DNA of 64,000 nucleotides from Minisyncoccota bacterium (GTDB taxonomy: Bacteria > Patescibacteriota > Minisyncoccia > Phycocordibacterales > UBA9973), in assembly GCA_041663185.1 (NCBI GenBank), contig JBAZQY010000001.1, positions 117,298 through 181,297 on the forward strand, read 5' to 3'. Made by a program: the position numbers and the translations under genes. Shown piece after piece: positions 3,356 to 63,365 of this stretch (position 1 is the first letter of the stretch; each line of letters starts with the position of its first letter). The notes below the pieces were generated by a model that saw only the letters and a program-made list of their open reading frames with translations, ran no database searches and was not told the DNA's origin.

Positions 3356-4564
3356 TTATACTCCACCGGCGATATTGTAAATCGGCATTAAGATTGATGA
3401 TAATAAGATACCAACTCCAAGCCCCAAAATAACAATCATAACTGGTTCAATTAATCCGACAAGAGTATCGACGGCTTCGTTAACTTCCCGAGCATAAAAA
3501 CGCCCGAGAGTTTTTAGAATATTCCCCAGGGACCCCGTCTCCTCCCCCACTCTTATCATCCCTGGCATAATTGGAGGAACTTCTTTGTGTTTAGAAAAAG
3601 CATCCGACAAAGAACTACCGCCTTTGACGGCTTCAGAAACATCTTTTAATATTCCTTCAAAAACCCGATTGCCAACCACCGCACTCGTCAACTCAATCGA
3701 TCGAACAATCGGGATACCCGATGAAAGCATAGTGTCCATATTGTCCGAAATTCTTGAAAGATAAAGTTTGGTGTAAATACTTTTGAAAACTGGGGTGTTA
3801 ATTTTTAATCGGTCAAAATATAATCGTCCAGCTGGAGATTTGGAATAGTGAATAATATAAACAACAAAGATAACTACTGCAATTAAAATGAAAACTCCGT
3901 AACGGACAAAAAGGTCACTCAACGACATAATAAGTCGAGTGAAAAATGGTATTTCAGCACTTGATTCTCGAATAATAAGCGCTAGTTTTGGAATAATAAA
4001 GACAAACATCATACACATCACGAGGATGAAAACACCGACAACAAAGGCTGGGTAGATCAGAGCATTTTTAGTTTTCGAAGTAAGTTGATATTGACGATCG
4101 AGATAATCGGCCAAATAAGAAAATGTTTGGGTAAGTTTACCCGTCTCTTCTCCAGCCCGAATCATATTGACATAAAAATCAGAGAAAACTACTTTGTGCT
4201 TCGCTAAAGCTCCGGAAATCGAAACTCCTGATCGAATATCTTCTGCAACTTCATTCAAAACTGCCACCAAAGCTTGATTTTCACTATTCTCAGCGAGCAG
4301 AGTGAAAGCTTTCAGGGCTGAAACTTGTGATTCAAAGAGCGTCGACATTTGTCGTGACATGATGACGATGTCTTTCATTTTTATTTTTGATTGCCCAAAG
4401 AAGGAAATATTAAACATCCCCTTTTTGGCTTTTTCTTCATCAATCGATGAGATGAAAAATCCGCGACGCTGAAGAGCAACAATCGCCAAGTCTTTCGAAC
4501 TTGCATCAATTGTCCCAACTTTATTCTCACCAGTACTGGTGATGGCTTTGTAATTGAATAACAT
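3356..4564 (-). CDS. pilC: Type IV pilus inner-membrane platform protein (PilC/GspF family)
   Basis: 402 aa with a duplicated T2SS-F-like architecture and 3 TM segments. It is adjacent to the pilT/pilB ATPases. Confidence 0.8.
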   Translation of the reverse strand: MLFNYKAITSTGENKVGTIDASSKDLAIVALQRRGFFISSIDEEKAKKGMFNISFFGQSKIKMKDIVIMSRQMSTLFESQVSALKAFTLLAENSENQALVAVLNEVAEDIRSGVSISGALAKHKVVFSDFYVNMIRAGEETGKLTQTFSYLADYLDRQYQLTSKTKNALIYPAFVVGVFILVMCMMFVFIIPKLALIIRESSAEIPFFTRLIMSLSDLFVRYGVFILIAVVIFVVYIIHYSKSPAGRLYFDRLKINTPVFKSIYTKLYLSRISDNMDTMLSSGIPIVRSIELTSAVVGNRVFEGILKDVSEAVKGGSSLSDAFSKHKEVPPIMPGMIRVGEETGSLGNILKTLGRFYAREVNEAVDTLVGLIEPVMIVILGLGVGILLSSILMPIYNIAGGV

Positions 4565-4566
4565 AA

Positions 4567-5649
4567 TTAAAACATTTGCTCTAATGATTTAGGATTAATA
4601 GAAAATTCATAAGCACTCTCGAGACTTATTTCTCCCCTCTGCACAAGATCAATCAGACATCGGTTCATATCAACCATCCCTTCATGGGACGAAGTTTCAA
4701 TGACGACATCGATCTCATGGGTTCTTTTTTCACGAATTAAATTGGCAATCGCTTTGTTATTGATCAAAAGTTCATAAGCGGGAATACGCCCACCGGCAAT
4801 CCGCGGAATTAAACGTTGCGAGAATATTCCAAGCAAACTTGAAGCGAGCTGTAAACGAATCTGGCCTTGTTGTTCGGCGGGGAATGAGTCGATAATACGA
4901 TCAATAGTTTGTGAAGCATTGTTGGTATGCAGAGTTGAAAGGACCAAGTGCCCCGTCTCAGCAGCTGTCACCGCAGCGGCGATGGTTGATGGATCACGCA
5001 TTTCTCCAATTAAAATAACATTGGCATCTTCACGGAAAGTTGACTTCAGAGCTTTCAAAAAATCATCCGTATCAATACCAATTTCACGTTGATTGATGAT
5101 TGATTTGTCGGGCTGATAGATGAATTCAATAGGATCTTCGATCGTCATAATGTGTGCTGCGGTTTGTGTATTGATCATATTAATCATCGTAGAGAGGGTT
5201 GTTGATTTACCTTGTCCGACTGGCCCAACAACAAGAAAGAATCCTTGTTTTTTCATAGTGAAATCTTTAAGGATCATCGGTAAATTTAATTCTTCAAATG
5301 ATTTAGCTTTAGGAATTAGCCGGATAGCGATGCAGACGAGCCCACGCTGAAAGAAAGCATTGCCTCGGAGTTGAACTTGACCATCTTTCAAATTACTCGA
5401 GAAATCAACATCCTTGTTTTCGATAAATTTCTTGACTCTTTCGCTGCCAATCAATTCCTCTAAAAGACCAAGCACATCATCTTCAGTCATAACTTTATGG
5501 TTAACCAAAGAGATAAGTTGGCCATTTACTCGGATGTATGGTTTGCGCCCGATACCAAGATGCAAATCTGAGCCATCTTCATTGATCAGGTTTTCAATTA
5601 ATTCATTGAGTAATTTTTTATATTCCATATTAGTTTTTGTGTGCGTCAC
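4567..5649 (-). CDS. pilT: Twitching-motility retraction ATPase PilT
   Basis: Walker A GPVGQGKST. The PilT-type motifs IEDPIE and ...GGRIPAYELLINN... are present. Confidence 0.8.
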   Translation of the reverse strand: MTHTKTNMEYKKLLNELIENLINEDGSDLHLGIGRKPYIRVNGQLISLVNHKVMTEDDVLGLLEELIGSERVKKFIENKDVDFSSNLKDGQVQLRGNAFFQRGLVCIAIRLIPKAKSFEELNLPMILKDFTMKKQGFFLVVGPVGQGKSTTLSTMINMINTQTAAHIMTIEDPIEFIYQPDKSIINQREIGIDTDDFLKALKSTFREDANVILIGEMRDPSTIAAAVTAAETGHLVLSTLHTNNASQTIDRIIDSFPAEQQGQIRLQLASSLLGIFSQRLIPRIAGGRIPAYELLINNKAIANLIREKRTHEIDVVIETSSHEGMVDMNRCLIDLVQRGEISLESAYEFSINPKSLEQMF

Positions 5650-6025
5650 TTATTATTTTAACAACTTTCTCGACTACTTCACTCGGCGTACTCGAAGCTT
5701 TGACAATATAGCCGGAGGCACCCATCGCTTCGGCGCGAGTAATATCTGTTTGTTGTCCACGATTAGAAAGAAAGACAATAATGGAATTCGGAGCAATTTT
5801 TTCTTTTCTAATTTTCTCAAGTAATTCAAACCCATCCATAACGGGCATCATAATATCTAAAATAATGAGATCCGGAGAAAGTCCTTGCTGAAGTTTCTCG
5901 AGAGCTAACTCCGGGCCTAAAGCAGTCGAAACATTAAAATTTGATTTACTAAATTTCAATGCATACATATCAAGAAGAAAGCTATCATCGTCGACAATCA
6001 GAATCTTTTTAAGTTCTTTATCCAT
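5630..6025 (-). CDS. Standalone response-regulator receiver domain (CheY/PilH-like)
   Basis: KILIVDDD...DIMMPVMDGFELL...K receiver signature, with no output domain. It is embedded in the pilus operon. Confidence 0.75.
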   Translation of the reverse strand: MDKELKKILIVDDDSFLLDMYALKFSKSNFNVSTALGPELALEKLQQGLSPDLIILDIMMPVMDGFELLEKIRKEKIAPNSIIVFLSNRGQQTDITRAEAMGASGYIVKASSTPSEVVEKVVKIISDAHKN

Positions 6026-6056
6026 ACATTTATATTATAATATAATTGTCAATATT

Positions 6057-7793
6057 TTAAAAGTTATAAACTTCTTGAAGTGGTATATCTCCTCGAATAC
6101 TTTTGACGATTGCATCTTCACGAATTGTCAGCATTCCACGTGAGCGAGCGAGCTTATAGATATCTTGCTCAACTGGATGTTTGAGGATTATCGCTTGCAT
6201 CTCCTTATCAATTTTAAACATTTCAAATAGTGATATACGGCCTTTTAGTCCGGAGGCGCATTCGGCCGACGGCACCGCTTCATAAATAGTGTTGCCGATA
6301 TTTAATTTCGATTTAAATTCTTCTGGCAAATCAGCAAATTGTTTATCAAACATTAATTTGGTCGCTTCATCAATCGGAATTTCGTGTTTAGAATTTGGAT
6401 GAATTCTGCGAGCTAGACGTTGAGCCATACAGAGAATCAAAGTTGGAGCAATTAGATATGGGTCTATTCCCATATCAATCAAACGTGGAATTGCCCCGAC
6501 AGAATTATTGGTGTGAAGTGTTGAAAGAACCAAGTGCCCGGTCAGGGCTGCTTGAATAGCAAGCTCGGCAGTTTCTTTATCACGAATTTCTCCGACTAAT
6601 ATAATATTGGGGTCTTGACGTAGAATTGACCTGAGTCCTGAAGCAAAAGTGTATCCAATCTCGGGCATAATCTGAGATTGATTAACTCCATCAATTTTAT
6701 ATTCAACTGGATCTTCTAGGGAAACAATATTCTTATCTTCCTTATCGAGTTCATTCAACATTGAGTAGAGAGTAGTTGTTTTACCACTTCCAGTTGGACC
6801 AGTAATAAGAAGTAATCCATATGGGCGAGACAATGAATCTCGAATAAGGACTAAATTCTCTTTTGACAATCCCAGGTCGTCGAGTTTCTGAATCCCTCTT
6901 TGAGAATCCAAAATACGCATCACAATCTTTTCTCCATAATAAGCCGGCATAGTCGAGACACGGAAATCAATTTTTCGGCCTTCAATTTTGGCTGAGAAGC
7001 CACCATCTTGTGGTTTACGTTTTTCATCGAGTCGTAATCGCGCCAAAATTTTAATACGCGCAACGACGCCATTATAGACAGAAAGTGGTAAAGTCAAAGA
7101 AGTATGTAAAATACCATCAACACGAAAACGCACTTTGACTCTATCCCCTGTATTTTCTATATGGATATCCGAAGCTAAACCTTCGGTGGCATTACGGAGA
7201 ATAACGGCGACAATCTTGACTATCGGCGCTTCTTCAACTATTTTCTCATCACCTGCTTTCTGAGTATCTGGTGATTTAATATTTGTTTCAATAATAACTC
7301 CACTGTCATTATAATCTGCAAACTCAGAATCAAGCTCACTGAGAGCTTGGTCAACTTCGGTACCACTTGTCCCTTCATACATTTCTATTAATTTATTGTA
7401 GACAGAAGTTGCAATCAAAAATAATTTAAATGGTTTATTTAATTTGGAGGTAATGAAAGTCAGCGCATCTATGGCTTGAATATTCTCTGGATCAACAATC
7501 CCAACTTCTAGAAAATTATCTGTTAAATTAATTGGAATAAAATGATAGATTTTAGCTGCATCAACTGGAATTAATCTTAGGATGGTCGGATCAACACTTC
7601 TCGGGTCAACTTTTTTAATTGGCACACCAAAAATATCTCCTTTGACTTCAAGAATTTTTTCTTCATCTAAATCGAAAACAACAAGTGCCTGGTCAATACT
7701 GCCCTCATATTTTTCATTAGCAATTTTGACGATTTCAGGTATTTGGTCTTCTTTTATAATTTCACGTTTTACAAGTTCTTCTAAAAGTATCAT
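6057..7793 (-). CDS. pilB: Type IV pilus assembly ATPase PilB (GspE family)
   Basis: N-terminal GSPII_E_N-like domain. Walker A LLITGPTGSGKTTTLYS and the T2SS-E secretion-ATPase core are present. Confidence 0.85.
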   Translation of the reverse strand: MILLEELVKREIIKEDQIPEIVKIANEKYEGSIDQALVVFDLDEEKILEVKGDIFGVPIKKVDPRSVDPTILRLIPVDAAKIYHFIPINLTDNFLEVGIVDPENIQAIDALTFITSKLNKPFKLFLIATSVYNKLIEMYEGTSGTEVDQALSELDSEFADYNDSGVIIETNIKSPDTQKAGDEKIVEEAPIVKIVAVILRNATEGLASDIHIENTGDRVKVRFRVDGILHTSLTLPLSVYNGVVARIKILARLRLDEKRKPQDGGFSAKIEGRKIDFRVSTMPAYYGEKIVMRILDSQRGIQKLDDLGLSKENLVLIRDSLSRPYGLLLITGPTGSGKTTTLYSMLNELDKEDKNIVSLEDPVEYKIDGVNQSQIMPEIGYTFASGLRSILRQDPNIILVGEIRDKETAELAIQAALTGHLVLSTLHTNNSVGAIPRLIDMGIDPYLIAPTLILCMAQRLARRIHPNSKHEIPIDEATKLMFDKQFADLPEEFKSKLNIGNTIYEAVPSAECASGLKGRISLFEMFKIDKEMQAIILKHPVEQDIYKLARSRGMLTIREDAIVKSIRGDIPLQEVYNF

Positions 7794-11641: not shown

Positions 11642-12832
11642 ATGAAAAAAAATAAAAACTATTGTCCAGATTGCGGGGGAGCTCAAACTATTCATTTTGT
11701 CGCTTATGTCTCTGTGTTGCTAGGTGCATTATTCGAACCTTGGACAAATTGGATAGGTAAAGTTATTCCTGAATCATCTTTCGATTGGTTGGGACCAACT
11801 TTGACAAAAATTTTAACTTTTTTAAAACTCGGTAAAATAACTTATGAACCAAAAGAAGATGATAGTGGCCGAACTCGAGTTCTTTGGGAAGAAGCCATTA
11901 AAAGAGGTATCAAAATGTATGAGTTTCGTTTATTTGGAATTGGCCACGATATTTTTGTTTCAGAATACAAAGGACATAAAAGATTTTTTGATGTTTTACC
12001 CCGTCCAGATAAATACAATCCCAAGGGTTTGGAATGGATGGATGATAAAGGTAAGATGAAAAAACATTTCAAAAAAGCAGGAATTAAAGTTGCAAATGGT
12101 AGAGTTGTCCACTCTGTCCGAAAGGCTTTAAAAGTTTTTAACTCTCTAGAAAAACCAGTCATTACTAAGCCAAATTTGGGTTCAAGGAGTCGCCATACTA
12201 CAACTCACATAAGTGATAAAAAAGAATTTATTATTGCTTTCAAGAAAGCTCGCCAACTTTCCCCTTGGGTGATGATTGAAGAGGAACTTTCTGGGTATGT
12301 TTTCAGGGGGACATTAATTGGTGGGAAATTAATCGCCGTTCTGCGTCGTGAGCCAGCTTATGTGATCGGTGATGGAATTCATAATGTAAAAGAATTAATT
12401 GAAATTGAAAATAAAAATCCCCTACGCACTGGTCCAATTTTCCATCAATTAAAATTAGACAGTGAAGCAATCAAAGAATTAACTCACTTTGGTCACACGG
12501 AAAATACAATCCCTAAAAAAGATGAAATCATAACTCTCGGACAAAAGACCAGCCGATCTGTCGGCGGAGGAATTACTGACATGACCGATATCGTCCACCC
12601 CGATAATAAAATATTATTGGAAAAAGTCGCAAAAGTTCTCGATGACCCACTGATCGGTGTAGATTTTATCATGGATGATGTCGCTATCTCTTGGCGTGAC
12701 CAACCAAAATGTGGAGTTATCGAATGCAACAGCGCTCCGTTCATTGACCTACACAGCTTCCCTCTTGTCGGCCGTCCTCACAACGTCGCAAGCGCCCTTT
12801 GGGATATTGTTTACCCAGATTCAAAAACGTAA
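11642..12832 (+). CDS. ATP-grasp domain ligase (RimK / cyanophycin-synthetase-like) with an N-terminal Cys motif
   Basis: CPDCGG at the N-terminus. The central and C-terminal regions resemble an ATP-grasp fold (…GKLIAVLRREPAYVIGDG…, …VGGGITDMTDI…). Confidence 0.5.
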   Translation: MKKNKNYCPDCGGAQTIHFVAYVSVLLGALFEPWTNWIGKVIPESSFDWLGPTLTKILTFLKLGKITYEPKEDDSGRTRVLWEEAIKRGIKMYEFRLFGIGHDIFVSEYKGHKRFFDVLPRPDKYNPKGLEWMDDKGKMKKHFKKAGIKVANGRVVHSVRKALKVFNSLEKPVITKPNLGSRSRHTTTHISDKKEFIIAFKKARQLSPWVMIEEELSGYVFRGTLIGGKLIAVLRREPAYVIGDGIHNVKELIEIENKNPLRTGPIFHQLKLDSEAIKELTHFGHTENTIPKKDEIITLGQKTSRSVGGGITDMTDIVHPDNKILLEKVAKVLDDPLIGVDFIMDDVAISWRDQPKCGVIECNSAPFIDLHSFPLVGRPHNVASALWDIVYPDSKT

Positions 12833-12838
12833 AAATAA

Positions 12839-12929
12839 CCAGCATATATAAAAATTTATGAGTAGGTGTGGGCGCGCCGGAGCCCGAAGGGCGTAGAGGG
12901 ATAAGCGAATAAATTTTTATATATACTGG
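12839..12929. repeat. Palindromic repeat element with conserved GC-rich core, copy 1 of 3
   Basis: ccagc-atatataaaaatttat-GAGTAGGTGTGGGCGCGCC...GGGATAAGCGAAT-ataaatttttatatat-actgg. Related copies are at 21805..21905 and 31511..31608. Confidence 0.8.
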
Positions 12930-12960
12930 CTATTTTTTGATTACCAAGAATTATTTTTAT

Positions 12961-21796: not shown

Positions 21797-21804
21797 CAGT
21801 TTTA

Positions 21805-21905
21805 GAAAACCGAGAATATTGAAAAATAAATGAGTGGGTGTGGGCGCGCGCCGAGCGAAGCGAGGTAGGGATAAGCGAGTTTATTTTTTAATATTCTCGG
21901 TTTTC
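21805..21905. repeat. Palindromic repeat element with conserved GC-rich core, copy 2 of 3
   Basis: gaaaaccgagaat-attgaaaaataaa-TGAGTGGGTGTGGGCGCGCGCCGAGCGAAGCGAGGTAGGGATAAGCGAGT-ttattttttaat-attctcggttttc. It is immediately 3' of ftsH. Confidence 0.8.
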
Positions 21906-21906
21906 T

Positions 21907-23907: not shown

Positions 23908-24354
23908 ATGGCCGTATATATAGACAACAGAAAAGCTCACTTTAATTACAGCATCGAGGATACTTACGAGGCTGGTATTGAATTACTCGGGCATGAAGTC
24001 AAATCAATCAAGAGTGGAAGCGGGAATATTAACTCGGCTTTTTGTATCGTCCGTGGTGGTGAAGCGTATATCATAAATATGAAAATTCCTCCTTACCAAC
24101 CACACAATATGGATCTTGGATACGACCCTGAAAGGACCCGTCGCTTATTATTATCAAAAAAAGAAATAAAGAAGTTAGCGGATCAAGATGATAAAAAAGG
24201 ATTGACTCTCATCCCTATTTCATTATATAGTAAGGGTCCTTATATAAAAGTCTCTATCGCTGTGGCTCGCGGGAAAAAAGAATTCGACAAAAGAGAAACA
24301 ATCAAAAAACGCGAAACAGATAGAGAGATAAGGAGAACTTTGAAAACAGGGTAG
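23908..24354 (+). CDS. smpB: SsrA-binding protein SmpB
   Basis: 148 aa with a conserved SmpB core (…NRKAHFNY…GIELLGHEVKSIK…) and a basic C-terminal tail. It lies immediately upstream of tmRNA. Confidence 0.85.
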   Translation: MAVYIDNRKAHFNYSIEDTYEAGIELLGHEVKSIKSGSGNINSAFCIVRGGEAYIINMKIPPYQPHNMDLGYDPERTRRLLLSKKEIKKLADQDDKKGLTLIPISLYSKGPYIKVSIAVARGKKEFDKRETIKKRETDREIRRTLKTG

Positions 24355-24422
24355 GAAGTAGCAAGTAGTATGTAGTAAGGAATTAATTTCCCTTTCTACT
24401 TTCTACTTACTACCTACTACTT
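24355..24422. repeat. GTAG-heptad imperfect hairpin (REP-like repeat family member)
   Basis: Left arm gaaGTAGcaaGTAGtatGTAGtaagg and right arm cctttCTACtttCTACttaCTACctaCTACtt, built from 7-nt units GTAGNAA/TTNCTAC. Confidence 0.6.
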
Positions 24423-24428
24423 AATACT

Positions 24429-26864: not shown

Positions 26865-28310
26865 ATGACACCACAACCAAAACTTACAGTTTCAGGATAT
26901 CGCGGGATTTGGGGAGAGAGTTTAACTCCTTTGATTATAGAGAATTATGTTTCTGCTTTTATTCAATTTGTGAAAGAAGATATAAATGATAAGCCGACAA
27001 TTCTTCTCGGGCGTGATGGTCGCGAAAGTGGCCCAGATATTAAAAAAATAGTGACAAGAACACTCCAGAAACTCGGTGTGAATTTCATTGATGGGGATAT
27101 TCTCCCAACTCCGACCGTTCTTTTCGCCGTCCGAAAACACAAATACGATAGCGCAATAATCATTACCGCTAGTCACAATCCGAGAGAATATAATGGACTA
27201 AAATTTGTAACCAACAAAGCACTTTTCACGGACGAAAAAGAAGTGGCAAAAATAAAAGAAAATTATGAAAAAATCACCAATAAAAATAAACTCCAACAGA
27301 ATATTCTTTCTGAAAGCACACATAAAACCCTACTGGGTTTTTGCTCTGCTCGGCCCGTCGGCCTGCGCAAGTCTTTCATAAAGAACATTCTGTCTTCGTT
27401 TATTAAAAAAATCAATTTCCCCAAAGAACACGCGGACCAAATTTTAAAACATATCAACGTAGAAAAAATTCGAGCTCATAAATTCAAAGTGGCTGTCGAT
27501 ATGATAAACGCTTCGGCTTGTGTCCTTGATCCATATTTATTTGAGCAACTTGGAGTCGAACTTATTCCTCTTAATAATATTCCTGATGGTAAATTTGCCC
27601 ATAAGCCAGAACCACTCCGAGAGAATTTAGGAGATATCGCGCAACTTGTAAAAGAAAAAAATTGCAACCTTGGCTTTGCTCACGACCCCGATGCTGACCG
27701 TCTGATTGTTATAAATGAAAAAGGTGAGGCCATTTCAGAAGAATATACTCTTGCCCTCGGGGTTGAAGCAATTCTTTCTAAAAACCATAACAATATCGCT
27801 GTTGTAAATATGTCCACCTCTCAAATGAATAGAGATATTGCCGAAAAATATGGTGGCAAATGTATCCGGACAAAAGTCGGTGAAGCAAACGTCGTTGCTG
27901 GTATTTTAGAGAACAATGCAATAATTGGTGGTGAAGGTGGTGGAGGAATTATTTACCCCACTATTAATATGGCTCGCGATAGTTTTGTTAGTTTGGCTTT
28001 AATTTTGGAATTATTGGCAGAAAGAGATCAAACTGTCACCGAATGTTTAGAAACACTTCCAAAATATGAAATGTGCAAAGACAAAGTGTCTGTTGTGGGT
28101 AGTTTAGAAGAAATGTATCTGAAGATGAAAAATCATTTCAAAAACGGAACTATAAATGAGCTTGATGGCCTTCGCCTCGACTTCCCTGATAACTCTTGGA
28201 TTCACTTACGACCCTCAAATACTGAGCCAATAGTTCGTCTTTATGGCGAAGCCCAGACAAAAGAAAGAATTACCGAATTATTCAAAGAAGCCCATGCTGT
28301 ACTTGCCTAA
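26865..28310 (+). CDS. Phosphoglucomutase/phosphomannomutase-family enzyme (GlmM/ManB-like)
   Basis: Active-site loop ITASHNP. The metal-binding loop FAHDPDADR is present. An unusual GC-rich in-frame segment lies at ~27316-27400. Confidence 0.75.
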   Translation: MTPQPKLTVSGYRGIWGESLTPLIIENYVSAFIQFVKEDINDKPTILLGRDGRESGPDIKKIVTRTLQKLGVNFIDGDILPTPTVLFAVRKHKYDSAIIITASHNPREYNGLKFVTNKALFTDEKEVAKIKENYEKITNKNKLQQNILSESTHKTLLGFCSARPVGLRKSFIKNILSSFIKKINFPKEHADQILKHINVEKIRAHKFKVAVDMINASACVLDPYLFEQLGVELIPLNNIPDGKFAHKPEPLRENLGDIAQLVKEKNCNLGFAHDPDADRLIVINEKGEAISEEYTLALGVEAILSKNHNNIAVVNMSTSQMNRDIAEKYGGKCIRTKVGEANVVAGILENNAIIGGEGGGGIIYPTINMARDSFVSLALILELLAERDQTVTECLETLPKYEMCKDKVSVVGSLEEMYLKMKNHFKNGTINELDGLRLDFPDNSWIHLRPSNTEPIVRLYGEAQTKERITELFKEAHAVLA

Positions 28311-28373
28311 AGATAGTCTTTATGCTAATATTCCCATTAGGTAGGTAATCTATTTTTCTATCGGACAATAAAA

Positions 28374-28877
28374 TTGAGAGAAAGAATAAACAATCAAATA
28401 CGAGCTTCTGAGGTTCGAGTAATCTCAAACGAAGGAGTTAATCTTGGTGTTTTAAGTATAAAAGAGGCCCAAGCACAAGCTGATTCGCAAGGACTTGATT
28501 TGATTGAAATTTCTCCCAATACTAATCCACCGATAGTCAAAATAGCAAATTTTGGTAAGTATCAATACGAACAAAATAAGAAACAGAAAAAAGCTAAAGC
28601 TGGAGCAAAAACAACCGAAACCAAAGCTGTTCAAATAAAAATCGGCACCGGCGACAATGACCTGGCTCTCAAGGCTAGAAAAGCATCAGAATGGCTCAAA
28701 GAAGGACATCGTATAAAAGTGGAATTATTTTTGTCAGGACGTTCCAAATATATGCCAGATGCATTCTTAAAAGAGCGGTTAGATCGTATTCTTCATCTTA
28801 TTACCGAAAATTATAAAATTGCCGAAAATTATAAAAAAGGTCCAAAAGGTCCAACAATTACAATTGAGAAGCAGTAG
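28374..28877 (+). CDS. infC: Translation initiation factor IF-3
   Basis: Conserved IF3 N- and C-domains (…INNQIRASEVRVI…, …LFLSGRSKYM…). The track uses a TTG start; an in-frame ATA at 28368 is an alternative, since IF3 genes typically use atypical start codons. Confidence 0.8.
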   Translation: MRERINNQIRASEVRVISNEGVNLGVLSIKEAQAQADSQGLDLIEISPNTNPPIVKIANFGKYQYEQNKKQKKAKAGAKTTETKAVQIKIGTGDNDLALKARKASEWLKEGHRIKVELFLSGRSKYMPDAFLKERLDRILHLITENYKIAENYKKGPKGPTITIEKQ

Positions 28878-28953
28878 AAAATAGCAAGCAGTAAGTAGAA
28901 AGGAAATTAAAAAAATAAATACCTTACTACATACTACCTACTACATACTACTT
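28871..28953. repeat. GTAG-heptad imperfect hairpin (REP-like family) between infC and rpmI
   Basis: Left arm gcaGTAGaaaaTAGcaagcaGTAAGTAGaaagg and right arm ccttaCTACataCTACctaCTACataCTACtt. Confidence 0.6.
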
Positions 28954-28960
28954 ATTATAT

Positions 28961-29158
28961 ATGTCTATTAAAACAAATAAATCTTTAACAAAGCGTTTAA
29001 AAATTACTAAAAATGGTAAGATATTGTCTCGTGCACCAGGATTCAATCATTTTAATGCGAAACAATCTAGAAAAAAACAATTAGGCGGTAAAAAAACAGC
29101 AAATTTTGCTATTTCAAATAGAAACCGACGTACATATCTGGCTACGTCAAAAATATAA
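28961..29158 (+). CDS. rpmI: 50S ribosomal protein L35
   Basis: 65 aa, basic, in the infC-rpmI-rplT arrangement. Confidence 0.8.
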   Translation: MSIKTNKSLTKRLKITKNGKILSRAPGFNHFNAKQSRKKQLGGKKTANFAISNRNRRTYLATSKI

Positions 29159-29185
29159 AAATTAATAATTTAATAATTAATCAAC

Positions 29186-29530
29186 ATGACAAGAGTTAAA
29201 AGAGGAACAATGAAAAATAAGCGCCGAAAGAATATCCTTGCCCAAACAAAAGGATTCCGTTTCGGACGCAGTACAAAAAAGATACAAGCTAAAGATGCAT
29301 TATTACACGCAGGGAATTATTCTTTTGCCCATCGCAAAGACAAAAAAGCAGATGCGAGAAGTTTGTGGACTACTAGAATTAACGCCGCAATCAGACCATT
29401 TGGAATGTCATACAGTAAATTCATTGATGGTTTAAAAAAGAAAAATATTATGGTTGACCGTAAAATTTTATCTGATATTGCTCAAAATAACCCAGAAGTG
29501 TTCGAAAGAATTGTAAAAAATATCGCATAA
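29186..29530 (+). CDS. rplT: 50S ribosomal protein L20
   Basis: MTRVKRG...KRRKNILAQTKGFRFGRS... conserved L20 N-terminus. Confidence 0.85.
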   Translation: MTRVKRGTMKNKRRKNILAQTKGFRFGRSTKKIQAKDALLHAGNYSFAHRKDKKADARSLWTTRINAAIRPFGMSYSKFIDGLKKKNIMVDRKILSDIAQNNPEVFERIVKNIA

Positions 29531-29558
29531 AAAAACCCTCCTCTCGGAGGGTTTTTTT
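29529..29558. terminator. Bidirectional intrinsic terminator
   Basis: aaaaaaa-ccctcc-tctc-ggaggg-ttttttt. Confidence 0.65.
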
Positions 29559-29561
29559 ATT

Positions 29562-30938
29562 TTAGCATTTTAGGATAACTGTCTCATTGTTTGTTGGGGT
29601 ATAAGCATCAACCCCAAGATTATCTTTCAACTTCTGAGCCAGAAACATTGCCGATTTCGGTTCTCCCATTACAACAAAAACTTTTTTTAAGGTATGAGCT
29701 GTATTTTCTACAAATTCAACTAAATGATCAGAGTCTTTGTGCCCCGAGTAGCCACTAATCATCTCTACGTGGGCGCGAACGATAGTCTCTTCACCAAAAA
29801 TGTGGACTTTTTTAGCTCCATCATAAATAAGTCGCCCGAGTGTCCCAATCGACTGATAACCAATCAATAGGATAGTATTATTCTTATCAGGTAGATAATT
29901 CTTTTCATGGTGCATTATACGACCACCTTTTGACATACCACTACCAGCAATAATTATTTTAGGTGGGGGTACTTTTAAAATTGCTTTCGATTCTTCTGTC
30001 TCCATTGTTTCTATTAAGCCTGGAAAATCAAAAAGTTTATCACCTGTTGCAATTATATCGCGGGCTGTTTTATTAAAATACTTATCATATTTCAAATAAA
30101 TATCTGTGAGTTTTATTGAAAGTGGTGAATCAAGAAATATCGGCAATTTAGACATTTCATCATTCTCATTAATAAAAGAATTCATTTCATAAAGTAATTC
30201 TTGTGTTCGCTCAAGGGAAAAAGTCGGTATCATAAGTACTCCCTTGCGAGTGTAATTTTCTCTTATTATTTCTTCAAGCTTCTTTTTACGCAAATCACGA
30301 TGTTCGTGATTGCGGTCTCCATAACATGATTCCATTATTAAATAATCCACGTTCTCAATTGGTTCATTATCCGGTAATAATGGCGATGGAGAATTACCAA
30401 GGTCCCCTGTGAAAACTATTTTCTTACCATTATAAATTATTTCCAGCATTCCAGAGCCAAGAATATGCCCAGAATTTTTGAAAGAAAATTGGAAGCCGTG
30501 GTCAATATTTATCTTCTGCCCATACTCAAATGTCTCCCATAGGTCCATAGCTTTCTTAATATTCTCTGGTGAATAAATTTTTGCCAAATCATATTCTGTA
30601 TCTTTCGATAAAATGTGGGCCGTGTCGGCCAACATCACTTCCGTAATTTCTTTTGTTGGAACAACTGAAATTATTCGCCCATTAAAACCTTCACTGATAA
30701 GCTTTGGAATACGCCCAATATGATCGACATGTCCATGGGTTATAAAAAGAATATCAATAGTCGAAGCATCATATGGAAACTTGTCCCAGTTTAGGTCGTC
30801 GGCGATTTTTTCTCCCTGAATTAATCCACAATCAATCAAAAATTTCTTGTCATTTCCCTCCAATAAAAAATTTGCTCCGGTAACAGTCCCTGCTCCAGAA
30901 CAAAAAGTCACTTTTAGATTTGTCTCATTTGTCATCAA
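29562..30938 (-). CDS. MBL-fold beta-CASP family ribonuclease-like hydrolase
   Basis: HxHxDH metallo-beta-lactamase motif (THGHVDHIG) plus a C-terminal beta-CASP-like region with conserved His. Confidence 0.65.
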   Translation of the reverse strand: MMTNETNLKVTFCSGAGTVTGANFLLEGNDKKFLIDCGLIQGEKIADDLNWDKFPYDASTIDILFITHGHVDHIGRIPKLISEGFNGRIISVVPTKEITEVMLADTAHILSKDTEYDLAKIYSPENIKKAMDLWETFEYGQKINIDHGFQFSFKNSGHILGSGMLEIIYNGKKIVFTGDLGNSPSPLLPDNEPIENVDYLIMESCYGDRNHEHRDLRKKKLEEIIRENYTRKGVLMIPTFSLERTQELLYEMNSFINENDEMSKLPIFLDSPLSIKLTDIYLKYDKYFNKTARDIIATGDKLFDFPGLIETMETEESKAILKVPPPKIIIAGSGMSKGGRIMHHEKNYLPDKNNTILLIGYQSIGTLGRLIYDGAKKVHIFGEETIVRAHVEMISGYSGHKDSDHLVEFVENTAHTLKKVFVVMGEPKSAMFLAQKLKDNLGVDAYTPTNNETVILKC

Positions 30939-30960
30939 ATCAATTATACCTTATATAGTT

Positions 30961-31075
30961 GAAAAATGGAATTTAAATAGCTCTTCTCGAAATACGCACA
31001 TAAAATTCTGCTGAATTTTTGCTATGCTCGGGCCGTCGCCCTGCGCAATGTATTTCTCAAAGACTATTTTAATTC
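30961..31075 (+). other. Diverged copy (about 80% nt identity) of an internal phosphomutase-gene segment (27301-27400); pseudogene fragment or mobile in-frame element
   Basis: Nucleotide alignment includes a GC-rich hairpin with a compensatory change (gggc...gccc versus ggcc...ggcc). The same-frame translation LNFCYARAVALRNVF resembles LGFCSARPVGLRKSF and is preceded by a stop. Confidence 0.5.
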
Positions 31076-31084
31076 CATTTTTCA

Positions 31085-31206
31085 ATAATCTTATAAAAAG
31101 ATAAACAAAATAGTCTTATCAGAGGGGCTTTTGAGCGCGACGGCGTGAAAACTGATCAAATTTCTAGTAAGAAATTTGATGTACCCTCTGGGAAGAGCTA
31201 TTTTGT
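31085..31206. repeat. ~120-nt nested imperfect palindrome
   Basis: Outer perfect 19-bp arms aaaaagataaacaaaatag/ctattttgtttatcttttt. Inner stems are cagaggg/ccctctg and atcaaatttc-tagtaa-gaaatttgat, with an asymmetric GC-rich bulge. Confidence 0.55.
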
Positions 31207-31510
31207 TTATCTTTTTTGTTTTCCTAATAAAAAATCCTCCCAAAAATGGAAGAATTTCTTATTAGGACTATCGAAGTTGTATTACCGTAGCACTAAGACT
31301 AGGTGGGATTACGGATAATAGGGATTTGTTAACGTAAAATTGTTTACAGTTCCTTATTAAAACTCTATATCCCCTAAAAAATTGTTCTAGGTAACACATT
31401 TCAAATAATCCTATCTTGAGTATACCCTCCGAAAATAATTACACAAGCGTTTTTACAAAAATAACACACTTTTGACAGCCCTTCAAATTGAGTTTTGAAT
31501 AAAGATATCG

Positions 31511-31608
31511 AAAAAACCCAATATAAAAATTTTATGAGTAGGTGTGGGCGCGCGCCGAGCGAAGCGAGGTAGGGATAAGCGAATAAAATTTTTATATTGG
31601 GCTTTTTT
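31511..31608. repeat. Palindromic repeat element with conserved GC-rich core, copy 3 of 3
   Basis: aaaaaaccca-atataaaaattttat-GAGTAGGTGTGGGCGCGCGCCGAGCGAAGCGAGGTAGGGATAAGCGAAT-aaaatttttatat-tgggctttttt. It is 3' of the CYTH gene. Confidence 0.8.
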
Positions 31609-31622
31609 ATAAGAAAAACTAT

Positions 31623-51931: not shown

Positions 51932-52264
51932 CTATGTAAATATTATTTTATCTCCCTTTTTCAAATGAACGACCGCTTTTTTCCCTCCTTGTTTTACACT
52001 TACAATTCCACGGCGAGTAACCGTCTTTTTTGCAATCTGAGTCATTGAAACTCTTACTGGCATCACGTTGTAAACTAATTTAATAGCTTTTTTAATTTCA
52101 TTTTTATTAGCATTCGAAGAGACATTGAAAGTATAAACGCCGCGCTCAGCTAGAATTGCTGACTTTTCTGTTACTCGAGCTCCTTTTAGAAGTGGGTGAG
52201 TTTTCTCTTTTTTATTATCCACGACTTCGTCTTTTTTATTCTTTTTTGTTTTTTTTGTGTCCAT
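51932..52264 (-). CDS. rplW: 50S ribosomal protein L23
   Basis: 110 aa. Assigned by position between rplD and rplB and the L23 core (...EKS...FNVS..ANK.EIK.A....V.V..V...). Confidence 0.8.
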   Translation of the reverse strand: MDTKKTKKNKKDEVVDNKKEKTHPLLKGARVTEKSAILAERGVYTFNVSSNANKNEIKKAIKLVYNVMPVRVSMTQIAKKTVTRRGIVSVKQGGKKAVVHLKKGDKIIFT

Positions 52265-52276
52265 ATTTTTTTCTTA

Positions 52277-53062
52277 CTACTTACTACTTACTACTTTTTC
52301 AATCTTCCCACCCAAAAAAGCAATGCTTTCCTTGGGTTGTGAAATTATAATGTATCGGAATGCGAGTAAATCAACAGGATTAATATTGCGAATTTCATCT
52401 ATCTCAACTGTTTTTATATTTGCAAAACTTTTCTTAATAGTATCTGTTTTTGCAGGAATTGTGATGTAGGTATTTGGATTTTTCCCTCCAACCATCCTCT
52501 CAAAACCCTTGATGGTACTCAATTCCTTGATAACATTTACAGCATCTTTTGTTTTGATATTTTTCAAAGTTAGTTCTTCTAAGAAAAGAACTTGCCCTTT
52601 TCGAAACTTTTCTGACAAAACACTAAAGAGCGCTCCGACTTTCATTTTTTTGTTTATTTTTTGTTCATAGCTCTTCTCATTTCGTGGACCATGAGTTACA
52701 CCTCCACCTTTCCAGATAGGAGAACGTGTCGACCCATGACGAGCACGTCCAGTTCCTTTTTGACGCCATGGTTTTTTACCTCCCCCACGAACCTCTCCGC
52801 GTGTTCTTGTGTGTGCAACTGGAGTTCGAGCATTTGCTTGCATCGCAGTCACAACTTGGTGAACCAAGTCACCATTCCATTTAAGTCCAAAAATTGATTC
52901 AGGAAGAGAAAGCTTCCCGACAGATTTTCCTTTTTGGTTGTAAACTTCTGTCTCTATCCCGGCAGGAATTGCTTTTGGGGCTTTTTCTTTGGGTGTTGCT
53001 GTGGTCTTTTTTGTCGCCGTCACTGTAGTTTTATTCTTTTTTTGTGTGTTATCTTTTTCCAT
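52277..53062 (-). CDS. rplD: 50S ribosomal protein L4 (Lys/Thr-rich N-terminal extension)
   Basis: ...RGEVRGGGKKPWRQKGTGRAR.GS.RSP.W.GGG... conserved L4 loop. The last 5 codons (VVSSK) are encoded by a (CTTACTA)3 heptad array at 52273..52293. Confidence 0.85.
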   Translation of the reverse strand: MEKDNTQKKNKTTVTATKKTTATPKEKAPKAIPAGIETEVYNQKGKSVGKLSLPESIFGLKWNGDLVHQVVTAMQANARTPVAHTRTRGEVRGGGKKPWRQKGTGRARHGSTRSPIWKGGGVTHGPRNEKSYEQKINKKMKVGALFSVLSEKFRKGQVLFLEELTLKNIKTKDAVNVIKELSTIKGFERMVGGKNPNTYITIPAKTDTIKKSFANIKTVEIDEIRNINPVDLLAFRYIIISQPKESIAFLGGKIEKVVSSK

Positions 53063-62026: not shown

Positions 62027-63211
62027 ATGTTAGATTTAAAAACAATGAAGTCGGCCCTCGAGCAACTCGAGCAGGAAAGAAAAATTCCTCGCGAAAAAAT
62101 AATCGACGCTATCGAACAAGCTCTGGCTGCCGCCTATAAAAAAGATTACGGGAAAAAAGGTCAAATCATTCGCGCCAAGATAGATATTGAAACTGGCGTG
62201 ATGGAATTTTATCAAATCAAAATTGTTGTCGACGATACACTAGTTCGGATGACTGAAGAAGACGAGGAAGAAGAAATCGCTGAAGACGATGAGAGAGTTC
62301 GTTTCAACGAGGAACATCATATCCTGATCGAAGATGCAAAAAAAATAAAAAAGAATGTTGTACCTGGAGAAGAATTAGTCTTCCCTCTTGAAAATAAAGA
62401 TGATTACGGCCGTATCGCTGCTCAAACCGCCAAACAAGTTATTATTCAAAAAATTCGCGAAGCAGAACGTGGAGCGATTATTGATGAATATGGAAATAAA
62501 GAAGGAGAAATAATAAATGGCTTCGTTTCAAAAGTAGAAAGGGGAATTGTTTATATTGATTTCAATCGGGCAACAGGAATTATTTTACCTGAAGAACAAA
62601 TCCCTGGCGAATTCTATCGCCGTGGCGATAGAATTCGCGCCTATTTATATTCCGTCGAAGAAACTCCCCGTGGCGTAAATCTTAAACTTTCACGAACTCA
62701 TCCTGAACTTATTGATGGATTATTCGCCATGGAAGCCCCAGAAATTGCTTCGGGTGTTGTCGAAATAAAATCAATCGCCCGTGAAGCTGGAAGTCGTTCA
62801 AAGATCGCAGTTTTCTCAAATGATGAGCATGTTGACCCTGTCGGTTCATGTGTCGGACAAAAAGGTGTTCGCGTCACAACTGTCATGAGTGAATTAAATG
62901 GTGAAAAAATAGATATTATTCCTTGGTCCGCCGACCCAGAAAGTTATATTGCAAGTGCTATTTCTCCAGCCAATGTTCTTTCTATTGATGTAAATGAAAA
63001 TGAACACAAGGCCGTAATTGAAGTTGCAAATGATCAACTCTCTCTTGCCATCGGAAAGGGTGGACAAAATGTCCGCCTAGCTGCCAAACTTACTGGTTGG
63101 AGAATAGATATAAAAAGTACAGAAGGAAAAATTGAAACCTCTGGAGAAATTGCCGATAGTGATGTTATACTAGATGATGGTATTGTTGATGATGGTACTG
63201 ATGATAAGTAA
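62027..63211 (+). CDS. nusA: Transcription termination/antitermination factor NusA
   Basis: N-terminal RNAP-binding domain, an S1 domain, tandem KH domains (...IGKGGQNVRLA...) and an acidic C-terminus. Confidence 0.9.
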   Translation: MLDLKTMKSALEQLEQERKIPREKIIDAIEQALAAAYKKDYGKKGQIIRAKIDIETGVMEFYQIKIVVDDTLVRMTEEDEEEEIAEDDERVRFNEEHHILIEDAKKIKKNVVPGEELVFPLENKDDYGRIAAQTAKQVIIQKIREAERGAIIDEYGNKEGEIINGFVSKVERGIVYIDFNRATGIILPEEQIPGEFYRRGDRIRAYLYSVEETPRGVNLKLSRTHPELIDGLFAMEAPEIASGVVEIKSIAREAGSRSKIAVFSNDEHVDPVGSCVGQKGVRVTTVMSELNGEKIDIIPWSADPESYIASAISPANVLSIDVNENEHKAVIEVANDQLSLAIGKGGQNVRLAAKLTGWRIDIKSTEGKIETSGEIADSDVILDDGIVDDGTDDK

Positions 63212-63295
63212 TTAGTAGTAGGTAGAAAGTAGCAGGTAGTAAGAAAAAGAATTTGGAATTTCCCTTACTACTTACTACATATTACTTGCTACATT
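63212..63295. repeat. GTAG-heptad imperfect hairpin (REP-like family) downstream of nusA
   Basis: Left arm ttaGTAGtagGTAGaaaGTAGcagGTAGtaag and right arm cccttaCTACttaCTACatattaCTtgCTACatt. Confidence 0.6.
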
Positions 63296-63365
63296 ATTAA
63301 AAAGGTCAAATTATTATAAATAAAAAATTCTAGTAGCTAATATTTAGTTACTAAAAGCTAATCAG

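Follow-up and report, generated by a model that had tools for sequence, protein, structure and literature searches.

Introduction

Rickettsia palindromic elements (RPEs) and intragenic REPs are known for in-frame insertion into unrelated genes, such as truB and those of the uvr, rec and tRNA synthetase classes. To our knowledge, how RPEs move is still an open question after 25 years. The CGTC-tagged REPs are 20-40 bp in length and carry an unpaired terminal CGTC, a stem of 8-9 bp, a loop of 4-5 nt and a CCA tail, and those published are mostly arranged head-to-head (PMC3733652). Bacterial miniature elements (MITEs) are defined by conserved terminal inverted repeats and target-site duplications. 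Yeast mitochondria possess GC clusters, which are GC-rich palindromic insertions in a very AT-rich genome, some of them located in frame within protein genes. The coding palindromes of nematomorph mitochondria are likewise reported as GC-rich palindromic insertions in a very AT-rich genome, some of them in frame within protein genes (PMC6649704). Here we analyse a window of 64,000 nt and three sequences in it, named c1, c2 and c3, which are members of one family of short dispersed palindromic elements in Parcubacteria/Paceibacterota, resident both in intergenic DNA and in in-frame protein loops.

Copies of the element in the window

The features that concern us are the following:

26865-28310, plus strand: open reading frame of a phosphoglucosamine/phosphomanno-mutase family protein (481 aa) with c1 in frame
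27296-27393, plus strand: c1, copy of the palindromic element in the phosphomutase gene (covariance-model match of 112 bits, E 1e-24)
27324-27341, plus strand: AT-rich inner hairpin of c1, AAAACCC-TACT-GGGTTTT
27352-27363, plus strand: GC inner hairpin of c1, GGCC-CGTC-GGCC
30959-31085, plus strand: c2, intergenic copy (covariance-model match of 85.6 bits at 30974-31072)
31002-31019 and 31030-31041: inner hairpins of c2
31095-31216, minus strand: c3, copy of a diverged subtype (covariance-model match of 72 bits, E 1e-14, at 31105-31204)
31095-31113 and 31198-31216: perfect 19-nt arms of c3
31155-31180: inner AT hairpin of c3

A first-pass annotation, made from the sequence alone, had noticed a GC-rich segment common to the phosphomutase gene and the intergenic region, and this similarity is real. 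Of the 33-nt core motif TTTTTGCTNTGCTCGGNCCGTCGNCCTGCGCAA there are just two occurrences, at 27338-27370 and 31016-31048, and 100 dinucleotide shuffles gave none; the c1 core is indeed GC-rich for the genome (57% G+C vs 36% for the window). The two copies, described earlier as about 80% identical, agree at 93 of 131 positions (71%) over the whole alignment and are far more alike in the core. Two details noted at the same time hold as described: the compensatory change in the small hairpin (GGCC-CGTC-GGCC vs GGGC-CGTC-GCCC), and the frame kept by c2, which reads LNFCYARAVALRNVF with a stop upstream. In c1 the frame reads QNILSESTHKTLLGFCSARPVGLRKSFIKNILS, corresponding to residues ~146-179 of the phosphomutase.

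Structure prediction adds a point that the first-pass annotation did not contain, namely that both shared segments are long hairpins; c1, c2 and c3 have one common Y-shaped predicted fold (z -6 to -9.5). c1 folds with -36 kcal/mol (z -6.1), and its palindrome extends to ~27285-27404 (AATAAAC...GTTTATT) in an extended fold. c2 lies just upstream of the start of an MBL/beta-CASP nuclease gene (30938, minus strand), has outer arms of 22 nt that are 95% complementary, and folds with -46 kcal/mol (z -8.2). The nested palindrome with perfect 19-nt arms, which had been placed at 31085-31206 as a feature of its own, has such arms at the positions listed above and is c3, a diverged inverted copy that stands tail-to-tail with c2, has AAATAGCTCTTC...AAGACTATTTT in common with it, and belongs to a subtype with a syntenic copy in another genome (L005:17830-17927). 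The earlier suggestion of an in-frame insertable element present in two places is thus supported as regards the element and one short in the count. Three copies in 64 kb is a modest density, a point against the reading preferred below. The label "junkyard" for the spacer that holds c2 and c3 is misleading: about 250 nt of it are a conserved and structured non-coding region with a terminator at its end, also found in two other genomes.

Dispersal and genomic context

A pattern scan gave at least 118 stretches, and with a covariance model built from the element's copies the count rose to 154, spread over 90 assemblies of Parcubacteria/Paceibacterota, all of them Patescibacteria. Six loci have no covariance-model match, and all five records titled as bacteria outside the CPR are among them. 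Approximately 107 of the 154 copies are intergenic, and 27, under a definition of "genic" that required an open frame, lie in frame deep within long open reading frames of housekeeping genes. Occupancy varies at a given site: upstream of the MBL gene, one relative (L004) has an empty spacer, another (L005) has one copy there, and the window has two.

No mobility machinery or transposase was found, and viral, phage and plasmid collections gave nothing. Neither conserved terminal inverted repeats across copies nor a consistent direct repeat at the palindrome ends was seen, the ends themselves not being sharply defined; direct repeats of at least 5 nt flank 14 of 145 copies vs ~5 expected, a slight excess. 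It is thus solely from its distribution that we infer the element to be mobile.

Structure and conservation of the element

The element is approximately 100-150 nt long and consists of a long AT-rich stem with a conserved, GC-rich core of ~55 nt at its tip. The core forms two small hairpins, one AT-rich with the loop TRCT and one a 4-bp GC hairpin with the loop CGWC, the latter occurring as GGCC/GGCC, GGGC/GCCC, GCGC/GCGC or GGCT/AGCC around CGTC or CGAC. Across 13 copies, 89.8% of cells are paired, vs 44-60% when the partners are slid; both-sided changes occur in 26 of 28 pairs, and in the helix of the AT inner hairpin, which is 100% paired, six of seven pairs covary. A count over 96 copies gave 2297 cells with Watson-Crick pairs vs 45 G-T and 69 A-C, with next to nothing but Watson-Crick pairs in the inner hairpins. 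Pairing is maintained on both strands at the DNA level, and not as a one-strand RNA.

Core and arms differ in their conservation. Mean identity between copies is 0.54 for arms vs 0.72 for cores, and copies with cores 92-100% identical have arms only 42-85% alike. In 268 copy pairs from different assemblies the cores are at least 95% identical and the arms near background similarity. Copies at one host-gene site have conserved arms even where their core subtypes differ. One subfamily has inner arms in common (AATAGCTCTTC...AAGACTATT). Conserved cores with locus-specific arms are an unusual feature and not what a simple cut-or-copy transposon carrying its arms would predict; the core could instead be under selection because it works as a DNA motif.

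Such selection is the basis of the strongest alternative, that of a host-beneficial structured DNA motif. The core at a hairpin or cruciform tip would be a putative site of binding or processing by a Parcubacteria protein, kept locus by locus for a role in, for example, nucleoid organisation, recombination, replication or DNA uptake, and the arms would need only to pair. Near-identical cores between species and unrelated loci, arms that diverge with compensatory changes, and strict Watson-Crick pairing on both strands are all in line with it, and the conservation of unpaired core nucleotides and loops beside covarying helices is a signature of selection on structure. The arrangement of close copies fits as well: of 10 pairs separated by less than 200 nt, 8 are convergent (P ~4e-4 by our arithmetic, with 0.25 as the expected share). 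We nevertheless regard this alternative as unlikely, because close relatives differ in presence and absence at three syntenic sites, decayed remnants of the element exist, density is low and irregular, and the copies prefer no genomic context; moreover, it is hard to see why a regulatory DNA site should be placed, whichever way round, in the loops of essential enzymes.

The stable, covarying predicted folds might instead belong to a structured RNA family, such as a small RNA, a terminator or attenuator, or an mRNA processing signal, that is incidentally also present inside genes. As RNA, each of the three copies in the window has a somewhat better predicted fold on its complementary strand, and some intergenic copies sit directly behind genes or tRNA genes, with T-runs after them. 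Yet G-U pairs are no commoner than A-C, both being at mismatch level beside the Watson-Crick cells, and genic copies show no bias relative to their host genes (11 in the same orientation, 16 opposite). Intergenic copies are neither enriched after gene 3' ends nor depleted from divergent spacers: the tandem:divergent:convergent proportions, 66:17:14, are the same as the 198:55:41 counted for all spacers 100 nt or longer, and a role as intrinsic terminator was rejected on this comparison. A search of Rfam 15 over c1-c3 gave no match at the gathering threshold, nor any with E as high as 10 except a chance-level one to Ysr155 (E 5.1) on c3. A dedicated RNA is therefore improbable.

Residence in protein-coding genes

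The phosphomutase has all four PGM_PMM Pfam domains and is named phosphoglucosamine mutase / phosphomannomutase in one source. Its residues 10-131 and 183-472 align with PDB 1wqa, and the ~30 extra residues between them fall in a gap of that alignment, between chain residues 129 and 151. The AlphaFold model has just one long stretch of low confidence, residues 144-180 (pLDDT <50; whole-protein mean 84), and the position is one that the fold can accommodate, on the surface or in a linker. Alignment of orthologues, the check once proposed for whether the segment is an insertion, answers that it is: in the same loop of 120 orthologues the element is present forward in 30 and reversed in 38, 16 have other inserts and 36 are empty, so that the presence of the segment in all orthologues, which would have favoured a simple pseudogene fragment, is not what is found. 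These states are scattered almost randomly over the gene tree, with 49 parsimony changes on 120 tips vs a mean of 64 for shuffled states.

The phosphomutase is one of 11 host families identified by Pfam, namely PGM, Fmt, TsaD, PheT, UvrD, RecG, TruB, RsmA, Dus, a class-V aminotransferase (cysteine-desulfurase-like) and RecJ. The RecG site exists in three states among proteins 81-82% identical, being empty in the window and filled in another genome (L006). TsaD in one genome (L081) is the one case seen of a possibly disrupted host gene. No stop codon interrupts the host frame in any gene-internal copy located from the DNA pattern, whereas intergenic copies have only 1.3 of six frames open; from this integrity of the reading frames, the insert is probably translated.

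The same observations bear on the idea that the protein lacks the insert, either because the ribosome skips it or because, as a mini-intron or ribozyme, it is excised from the transcript. The element would make a compact three-way junction with conserved loops, and the translational bypass elements of yeast mitochondria are a formal precedent for a skipped insert. Against it stand the stop-free frames and the whole-codon differences of 63-114 nt that separate filled from empty alleles between conserved anchors at five loci, and the copies use both orientations and several reading frames. There is no match to a known ribozyme, and each of five tightly flanked "intergenic" copies stands between distinct genes, both complete, and not between the halves of a single gene. 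We give this alternative very little credence.

That c2 is a fossil of a duplicated phosphomutase fragment, as the first-pass annotation considered, is refuted despite the ~35 codons over which c2 can be read in the c1 frame, since the similarity of c1 and c2 stops where the element ends, solved homologues have no counterpart segment, the insert is absent or reversed in the orthologues counted above, and at least 10 further, unrelated gene families contain the sequence as well. With the element in at least 11 gene families and ~107 intergenic sites, and with 36 of 120 orthologues empty, the sequence entered the phosphomutase and did not leave it.

Proposed scenario and significance

The preferred reading is thus a dispersed palindromic element that is probably selfish and mobile. 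Copies would land, or be retained, in intergenic DNA and in surface loops of housekeeping proteins, and within proteins only stop-free, in-frame versions would survive. These would be translated as a disordered excursion of ~30 residues, placed in the phosphomutase between domains I and II. Turnover would be fast, by gain, loss, decay and inversion, with the same permissive loops being occupied repeatedly. A more far-reaching possibility, to which we give about one chance in a handful, is that the ~55-nt core alone is the unit that is spread or homogenised while the stem is owned by the locus, or alternatively that the core is a protein-binding site presented on a cruciform throughout Parcubacteria. 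Candidate routes for core-only spread would be insertion into, or replacement of, the tip of a hairpin already in place, directed by its structure and giving nested palindromes, in-situ inversion of whole palindromes, and arm-to-arm template switching that would keep stems perfectly Watson-Crick. If true, core-only spread would be a so far undescribed way of moving or converting DNA.

Genomes of Parcubacteria and other members of the candidate phyla radiation are tiny and usually called streamlined, yet they carry a widespread and fast-turning-over repeat family that decorates essential enzymes such as TsaD, PheRS, formyltransferase, repair helicases and phosphomutase. Rickettsia-style "selfish DNA in protein-coding genes" would thus not be peculiar to one intracellular lineage. 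The elements inflate variation in protein length and make hypervariable loops in marker genes, and they break metagenomic assemblies, since several contigs end within a copy. The contrast of core and arms, together with the re-use of loops in two orientations, provides a concrete data set on element movement.

Comparison with known repeat systems

The organellar GC clusters and nematomorph palindromes are likened to the element by description; they have other sizes and sequences and no two-hairpin core. Like bacterial MITEs (Correia/NEMIS, ERIC, Coxiella QMITE1/2), the element is non-coding, hairpin-forming, multi-copy and non-autonomous in appearance, and MITEs too can overlap open reading frames. 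Unlike them it shows no consistent target-site duplication and no conserved terminal inverted repeats, its arms (42-85% alike) being the variable part beside cores 92-100% identical. REPs, CGTC- and GTAG-tagged palindromic repeats and REPINs are likewise small GC-rich hairpins, often in inverted dimers, and some REPs are intragenic, in replication/repair and RNA-modification genes. The CGTC tetranucleotide is conserved in both systems, but CGTC or CGAC is here the loop of a 4-bp stem inside a larger element, which falls outside the definition of a CGTC-tagged REP. The inverted-dimer arrangement has its counterpart in the 8 of 10 convergent close pairs, with polarity equivalence between the two systems not established.

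By analogy, the closest known systems appear to be the RPEs and the intragenic REPs, and the element may be called RPE-like in kind. All the traits of an RPE-like element were found, namely dispersed palindromes of ~100-150 bp, in-frame genic copies, empty orthologues and a fold-compatible insert site. As with RPE-1 to RPE-10, the genome is small, AT-rich and host-dependent, many copies occupy unrelated housekeeping genes in frame and leave them intact while others are intergenic, the encoded peptide would be tolerated as an addition to the fold, and no transposase is known. Host-gene classes overlap as well (truB, uvr/rec repair genes, tRNA synthetases). The host phylum is Patescibacteria and not Alphaproteobacteria, and the element is therefore at most an analogue of the Rickettsia families proper, alike by description. 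It differs further in that the conserved part is the two-hairpin core at the tip, with locus-specific arms, and in that the same protein loop has been re-used in dozens of species in both orientations.

The shared segment and its three copies

The source genome of the window belongs to Candidatus Paceibacterota (Parcubacteria, candidate phyla radiation), and the gene of interest encodes a 481-aa protein with 100% identity to one named phosphoglucosamine mutase or phosphomannomutase in the sources. As the first-pass annotation had noticed, part of this gene recurs upstream of the MBL/beta-CASP gene; when aligned, the two segments are identical at 93 of 131 positions (71%), with much higher identity at the centre. 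The features concerned are as follows.

26865-28310: phosphomutase ORF, 481 aa, four PGM_PMM domains, all present
27296-27393, plus strand: c1, element copy inside the phosphomutase gene
30959-31085, plus strand: c2, intergenic copy
31095-31216, minus strand: c3, diverged copy beside c2

A 33-nt core motif, three positions of which were left free, has just two sites in the window, c1 and c2, and none in 100 window shuffles. The core is GC-rich for this genome (57% G+C, against 36% in the window), the small hairpin carries the compensatory change already described, and the intergenic copy reads LNFCYARAVALRNVF behind an upstream stop. The palindrome next to c2 does have perfect 19-nt arms, but these lie at 31095-31113 and 31198-31216 rather than at the positions first given. 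An exact look-up with the phosphomutase protein of the window gave no match, and a protein-based locus search of metagenome contigs returned two loci; a chimeric 118-aa peptide query (five matches) and a 34-aa phmmer query against 1.8 billion representatives (one match) were uninformative.

Both c1 and c2 form long hairpins, in which a stem rich in AT, at least about 20 bp long, leads to a three-way junction. From this junction arise an AT hairpin whose loop is TACT or TGCT and a 4-bp GC hairpin whose loop is CGTC; the window copies have fold z-scores between -6 and -9.5. On the minus strand, the neighbouring palindrome shows these parts in unchanged order and shares AAATAGCTCTTC...AAGACTATTTT with c2. 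A covariance model built from c1, c2, c3 and four copies in orthologous phosphomutase genes scores them at 112, 86 and 72 bits, respectively, and the palindrome is a member of the same family. Run with filters off, the model found only generic hairpins and no further credible copy in the 64 kb, and no Rfam family matches the element at either threshold used.

Probably a DNA palindrome rather than an RNA

Covariation supports the helices: of the cells in 13 copies, 89.8% are paired, whereas slid controls reach 44-60%, and double changes are seen in 26 of 28 pairs. In 96 copies we counted 2297 Watson-Crick cells, 45 G-T and 69 A-C, so that the strand-of-function test (G-U against A-C) reveals no asymmetry, and both inner hairpins are essentially without wobble pairs. 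An RNA made from one strand should be expected to have many G-U pairs together with strand asymmetry; the element is better regarded as a DNA palindrome. Copies in genes have no orientation bias, 11 pointing with the host gene and 16 against it.

A coding design is not favored either. Intergenic copies have on average 1.3 of six frames open, compared with 0.9 in shuffles and 1.8 in random 98-mers, which rules out adaptation to openness in all six frames; genic copies have 2.5, and this excess over intergenic ones fits the survival of stop-free variants in genes. A terminator role is rejected because, in context statistics that leave out tRNA genes, copies occupy tandem, divergent and convergent spacers (66:17:14) in proportions like those of all spacers (198:55:41). 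The idea of split genes fails on the five copies squeezed between same-strand ORFs, whose neighbors are different complete genes and not gene halves.

The phosphomutase loop as an insertion hot spot

Aligned with one another, 120 phosphomutase orthologues of 60-100% identity are hypervariable in the stretch that links domains I and II. Site states were called by comparing this stretch with six-frame translations of element copies.

Table. States of the phosphomutase site in 120 orthologues
Element forward (two frames): 30 orthologues
Element reverse: 38 orthologues
Short, empty: 36 orthologues
Other inserts or remnants: 16 orthologues

On a neighbor-joining tree built from the protein without the variable stretch, these states need 49 changes, whereas label shuffles need 64 on average and 53 at minimum; the state of the site therefore shows almost no correlation with phylogeny. 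The DNA of six orthologous loci confirmed that alleles of all three kinds (forward, reverse, empty) exist; compared with the empty allele, the variable segment differs by 63-114 nt, always in whole codons. Among solved homologues the best is a Pyrococcus phospho-sugar mutase (PDB 1wqa), which can be aligned on either side and has about 30 residues fewer at the insert, and in the AlphaFold model (mean pLDDT 84, pTM 0.84) the element-encoded peptide, residues 144-180, is the sole long stretch of low confidence.

The loop also receives other sequences. A different GC-rich multi-hairpin insert, translated ...PLLVEEGAGGGDLK...TPPQRGGE..., is present at L008:10343-10594 (orthologue P0010) and in P0012, P0074, P0106 and P0114, and a further type, ...KFSFSSLF...SPTCAIGPK..., occurs in P0032, P0043, P0054, P0055 and P0071. 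With several insert types at one place, the loop is a hot spot for several element families.

Distribution across Patescibacteria

A 29-nt IUPAC pattern drawn from the core, run on GTDB species genomes, matched at least 118 stretches. Among the matches listed, the covariance model recognized 154 copies in 90 assemblies, all of them Patescibacteria; named groups include Nomura-, Zambryski-, Yonath-, Kaiser- and Adlerbacteria as well as Paceibacteria. Six loci had no model match, among them all five records titled as non-CPR bacteria. Several contigs terminate within a copy, as expected of a repeat that breaks assemblies. Viral contigs, scanned with a pattern, and phage and plasmid collections, searched by blastn, contained no copy.

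Table. Location of full-length copies (n = 146, among the matches listed)
Intergenic: 107
Abutting an ORF start: 12
Deep within long ORFs: 27

Host genes fall into the Pfam families PGM, Fmt, TsaD, PheT, UvrD, RecG, TruB, RsmA, Dus, class-V aminotransferase (two genomes) and RecJ. TsaD carries copies in eight genomes; the gene is intact in seven of these, and there the copy sits between the motifs PGGPxISKLA and LPRPM. PheT carries one in five genomes, at one shared position. The first-pass annotation had proposed either a duplicated phosphomutase fragment or an insertable in-frame element. The observation itself is real and the second reading is right, given that 36 of 120 orthologues are empty and copies occur in many gene families; the pseudogene reading is wrong, as the family is not tied to the phosphomutase gene and 107 of the 146 full-length copies among the matches listed are intergenic.

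In one Parcubacteria assembly, TsaD (L081:905-2057) has two adjacent inverted copies in place of about 50 residues of conserved mid-protein, with an altered reading frame; this is either a pseudogene or between-copy deletion, or else an assembly collapse at the repeat. Some intergenic copies adjoin sequence on the opposite strand that resembles a tRNA 3' end (...GGATCGAACC...; L042:~1003-1047, L037:~2828-2872, L006:~4486-4530 and L060:~3663-3707).

Turnover and the behavior of core and arms

Three syntenic comparisons show that turnover of the element is fast. RecG proteins 81-82% identical to each other exhibit three states, namely a full element (L006), a remnant (L005) and plain ESDDEEKIK (window). 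The remnant, at L005:3960-3990, is a perfect small GC palindrome CCTGCCTGCGCAGGCAGG, translated LPAQAGD, and looks like a decayed reverse-oriented copy. Upstream of the MBL gene, the spacer of L004 contains no copy, that of L005 one c3-type copy, and that of the window both c2 and c3. The spacer between the phosphomutase gene and TruB has a copy in both L003 and L008, in opposite orientations. As to the idea that one arm might be native target sequence, native-looking sequence at the RecG and MBL-upstream sites is limited to the outermost 8-9 bp.

In all but one (L006) of the six related loci L003-L008, TruB separates the phosphomutase gene from infC; it is absent at the corresponding window position, 28311-28373. 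FtsH is called as two ORFs at L006:4639-6527 (Peptidase_M41, 4639-5400; AAA, 5421-6527), unlike the single gene of L003, L005 and the window.

We found no consistent target-site duplication, and the ends are blurred, with an extra complementary run of at least 7 nt in the 25-nt flanks of 41 of 144 copies against 31 of 432 controls. Copies of a single genome can have cores that are 100% identical and arms that are unrelated, as in L061, L099 and L094; across assemblies, 268 pairs with cores at least 95% identical have an arm identity of about 0.61, compared with 0.52-0.54 for pairs with dissimilar cores. At one host site the pattern is reversed, arms being conserved while the core subtype varies: window c1 and its L006 counterpart agree at 40 of 44 arm positions and their cores are only about 60% identical. 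In reverse alleles the asymmetry of the arms flips along with the core, and of the 10 pairs of copies separated by under 200 nt, 8 are convergent (P ~4e-4 at an expected share of 0.25, by our own arithmetic). These patterns, the blurred ends and the lack of a consistent duplication are hard to reconcile with a simple transposon. Candidate processes that might give rise to the patterns are insertion into hairpin tips, in-situ inversion and arm-to-arm template switching, and the unusual behavior of core and arms merits follow-up.

Other repeats and non-coding DNA

The intergenic region that holds c2 and c3, between the MBL and CYTH genes, contains about 250 nt of non-coding sequence conserved in three genomes (window 31225-31470, minus strand; L004:12095-12400; L005:17950-18255) with a long closing helix and, at the end, a hairpin like an intrinsic terminator (AATTCTTCC...GGAAGGATTTTTTATT). 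No Rfam family matches this sequence, which probably represents a small RNA gene that has escaped annotation, with the CYTH or NDK gene upstream on one side and the MBL/beta-CASP gene on the other. Another repeat, at 12831-12937, 21804-21906 and 31509-31609, is designed like the element, having a conserved GC-rich centre (GAGTAGGTGTGGGCGCGCGCCGAGCGAAGCGAGGTAGGGATAAGCGA) and AT-rich arms of 27-29 nt that are 93-96% complementary within a copy and different between copies; the covariance model touches it weakly (E 0.3-0.5). A short repeat rich in TACTAC/GTAGTA (e.g., CTACTTACTACCTACTAC) forms inverted pairs beside tmRNA, in the infC-rpmI interval and at two further sites (24351-24428, 28873-28956, 52252-52306 and 63201-63297).

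Comparison with known systems

Full-text literature on palindromic or repetitive elements of CPR, Parcubacteria or Patescibacteria yielded no description of such elements. CGTC REPs are defined by a terminal, unpaired CGTC and an 8-9-bp stem (PMC3733652), whereas in the Parcubacteria element CGTC is the loop; where MITEs have conserved terminal repeats the element has variable arms, and no consistent target-site duplication was seen of the kind that also defines MITEs. For these reasons, and since Rickettsia palindromic elements (RPE) are likened to it by description only, we claim no membership among RPE, REPs or MITEs. By that description, RPE are the closest elements known, being palindromes of about 100-150 bp that lie in frame in many unrelated genes and for which a transposase is not known. 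Intragenic REPs of the GTAG and CGTC super-families come close as well; they are overrepresented in genes for repair, in those for tRNA synthetases and in truB, often as inverted dimers, and the host-gene classes of our element overlap strikingly with these. The element is a new family, in a phylum for which we found no report, of an already known kind of element.
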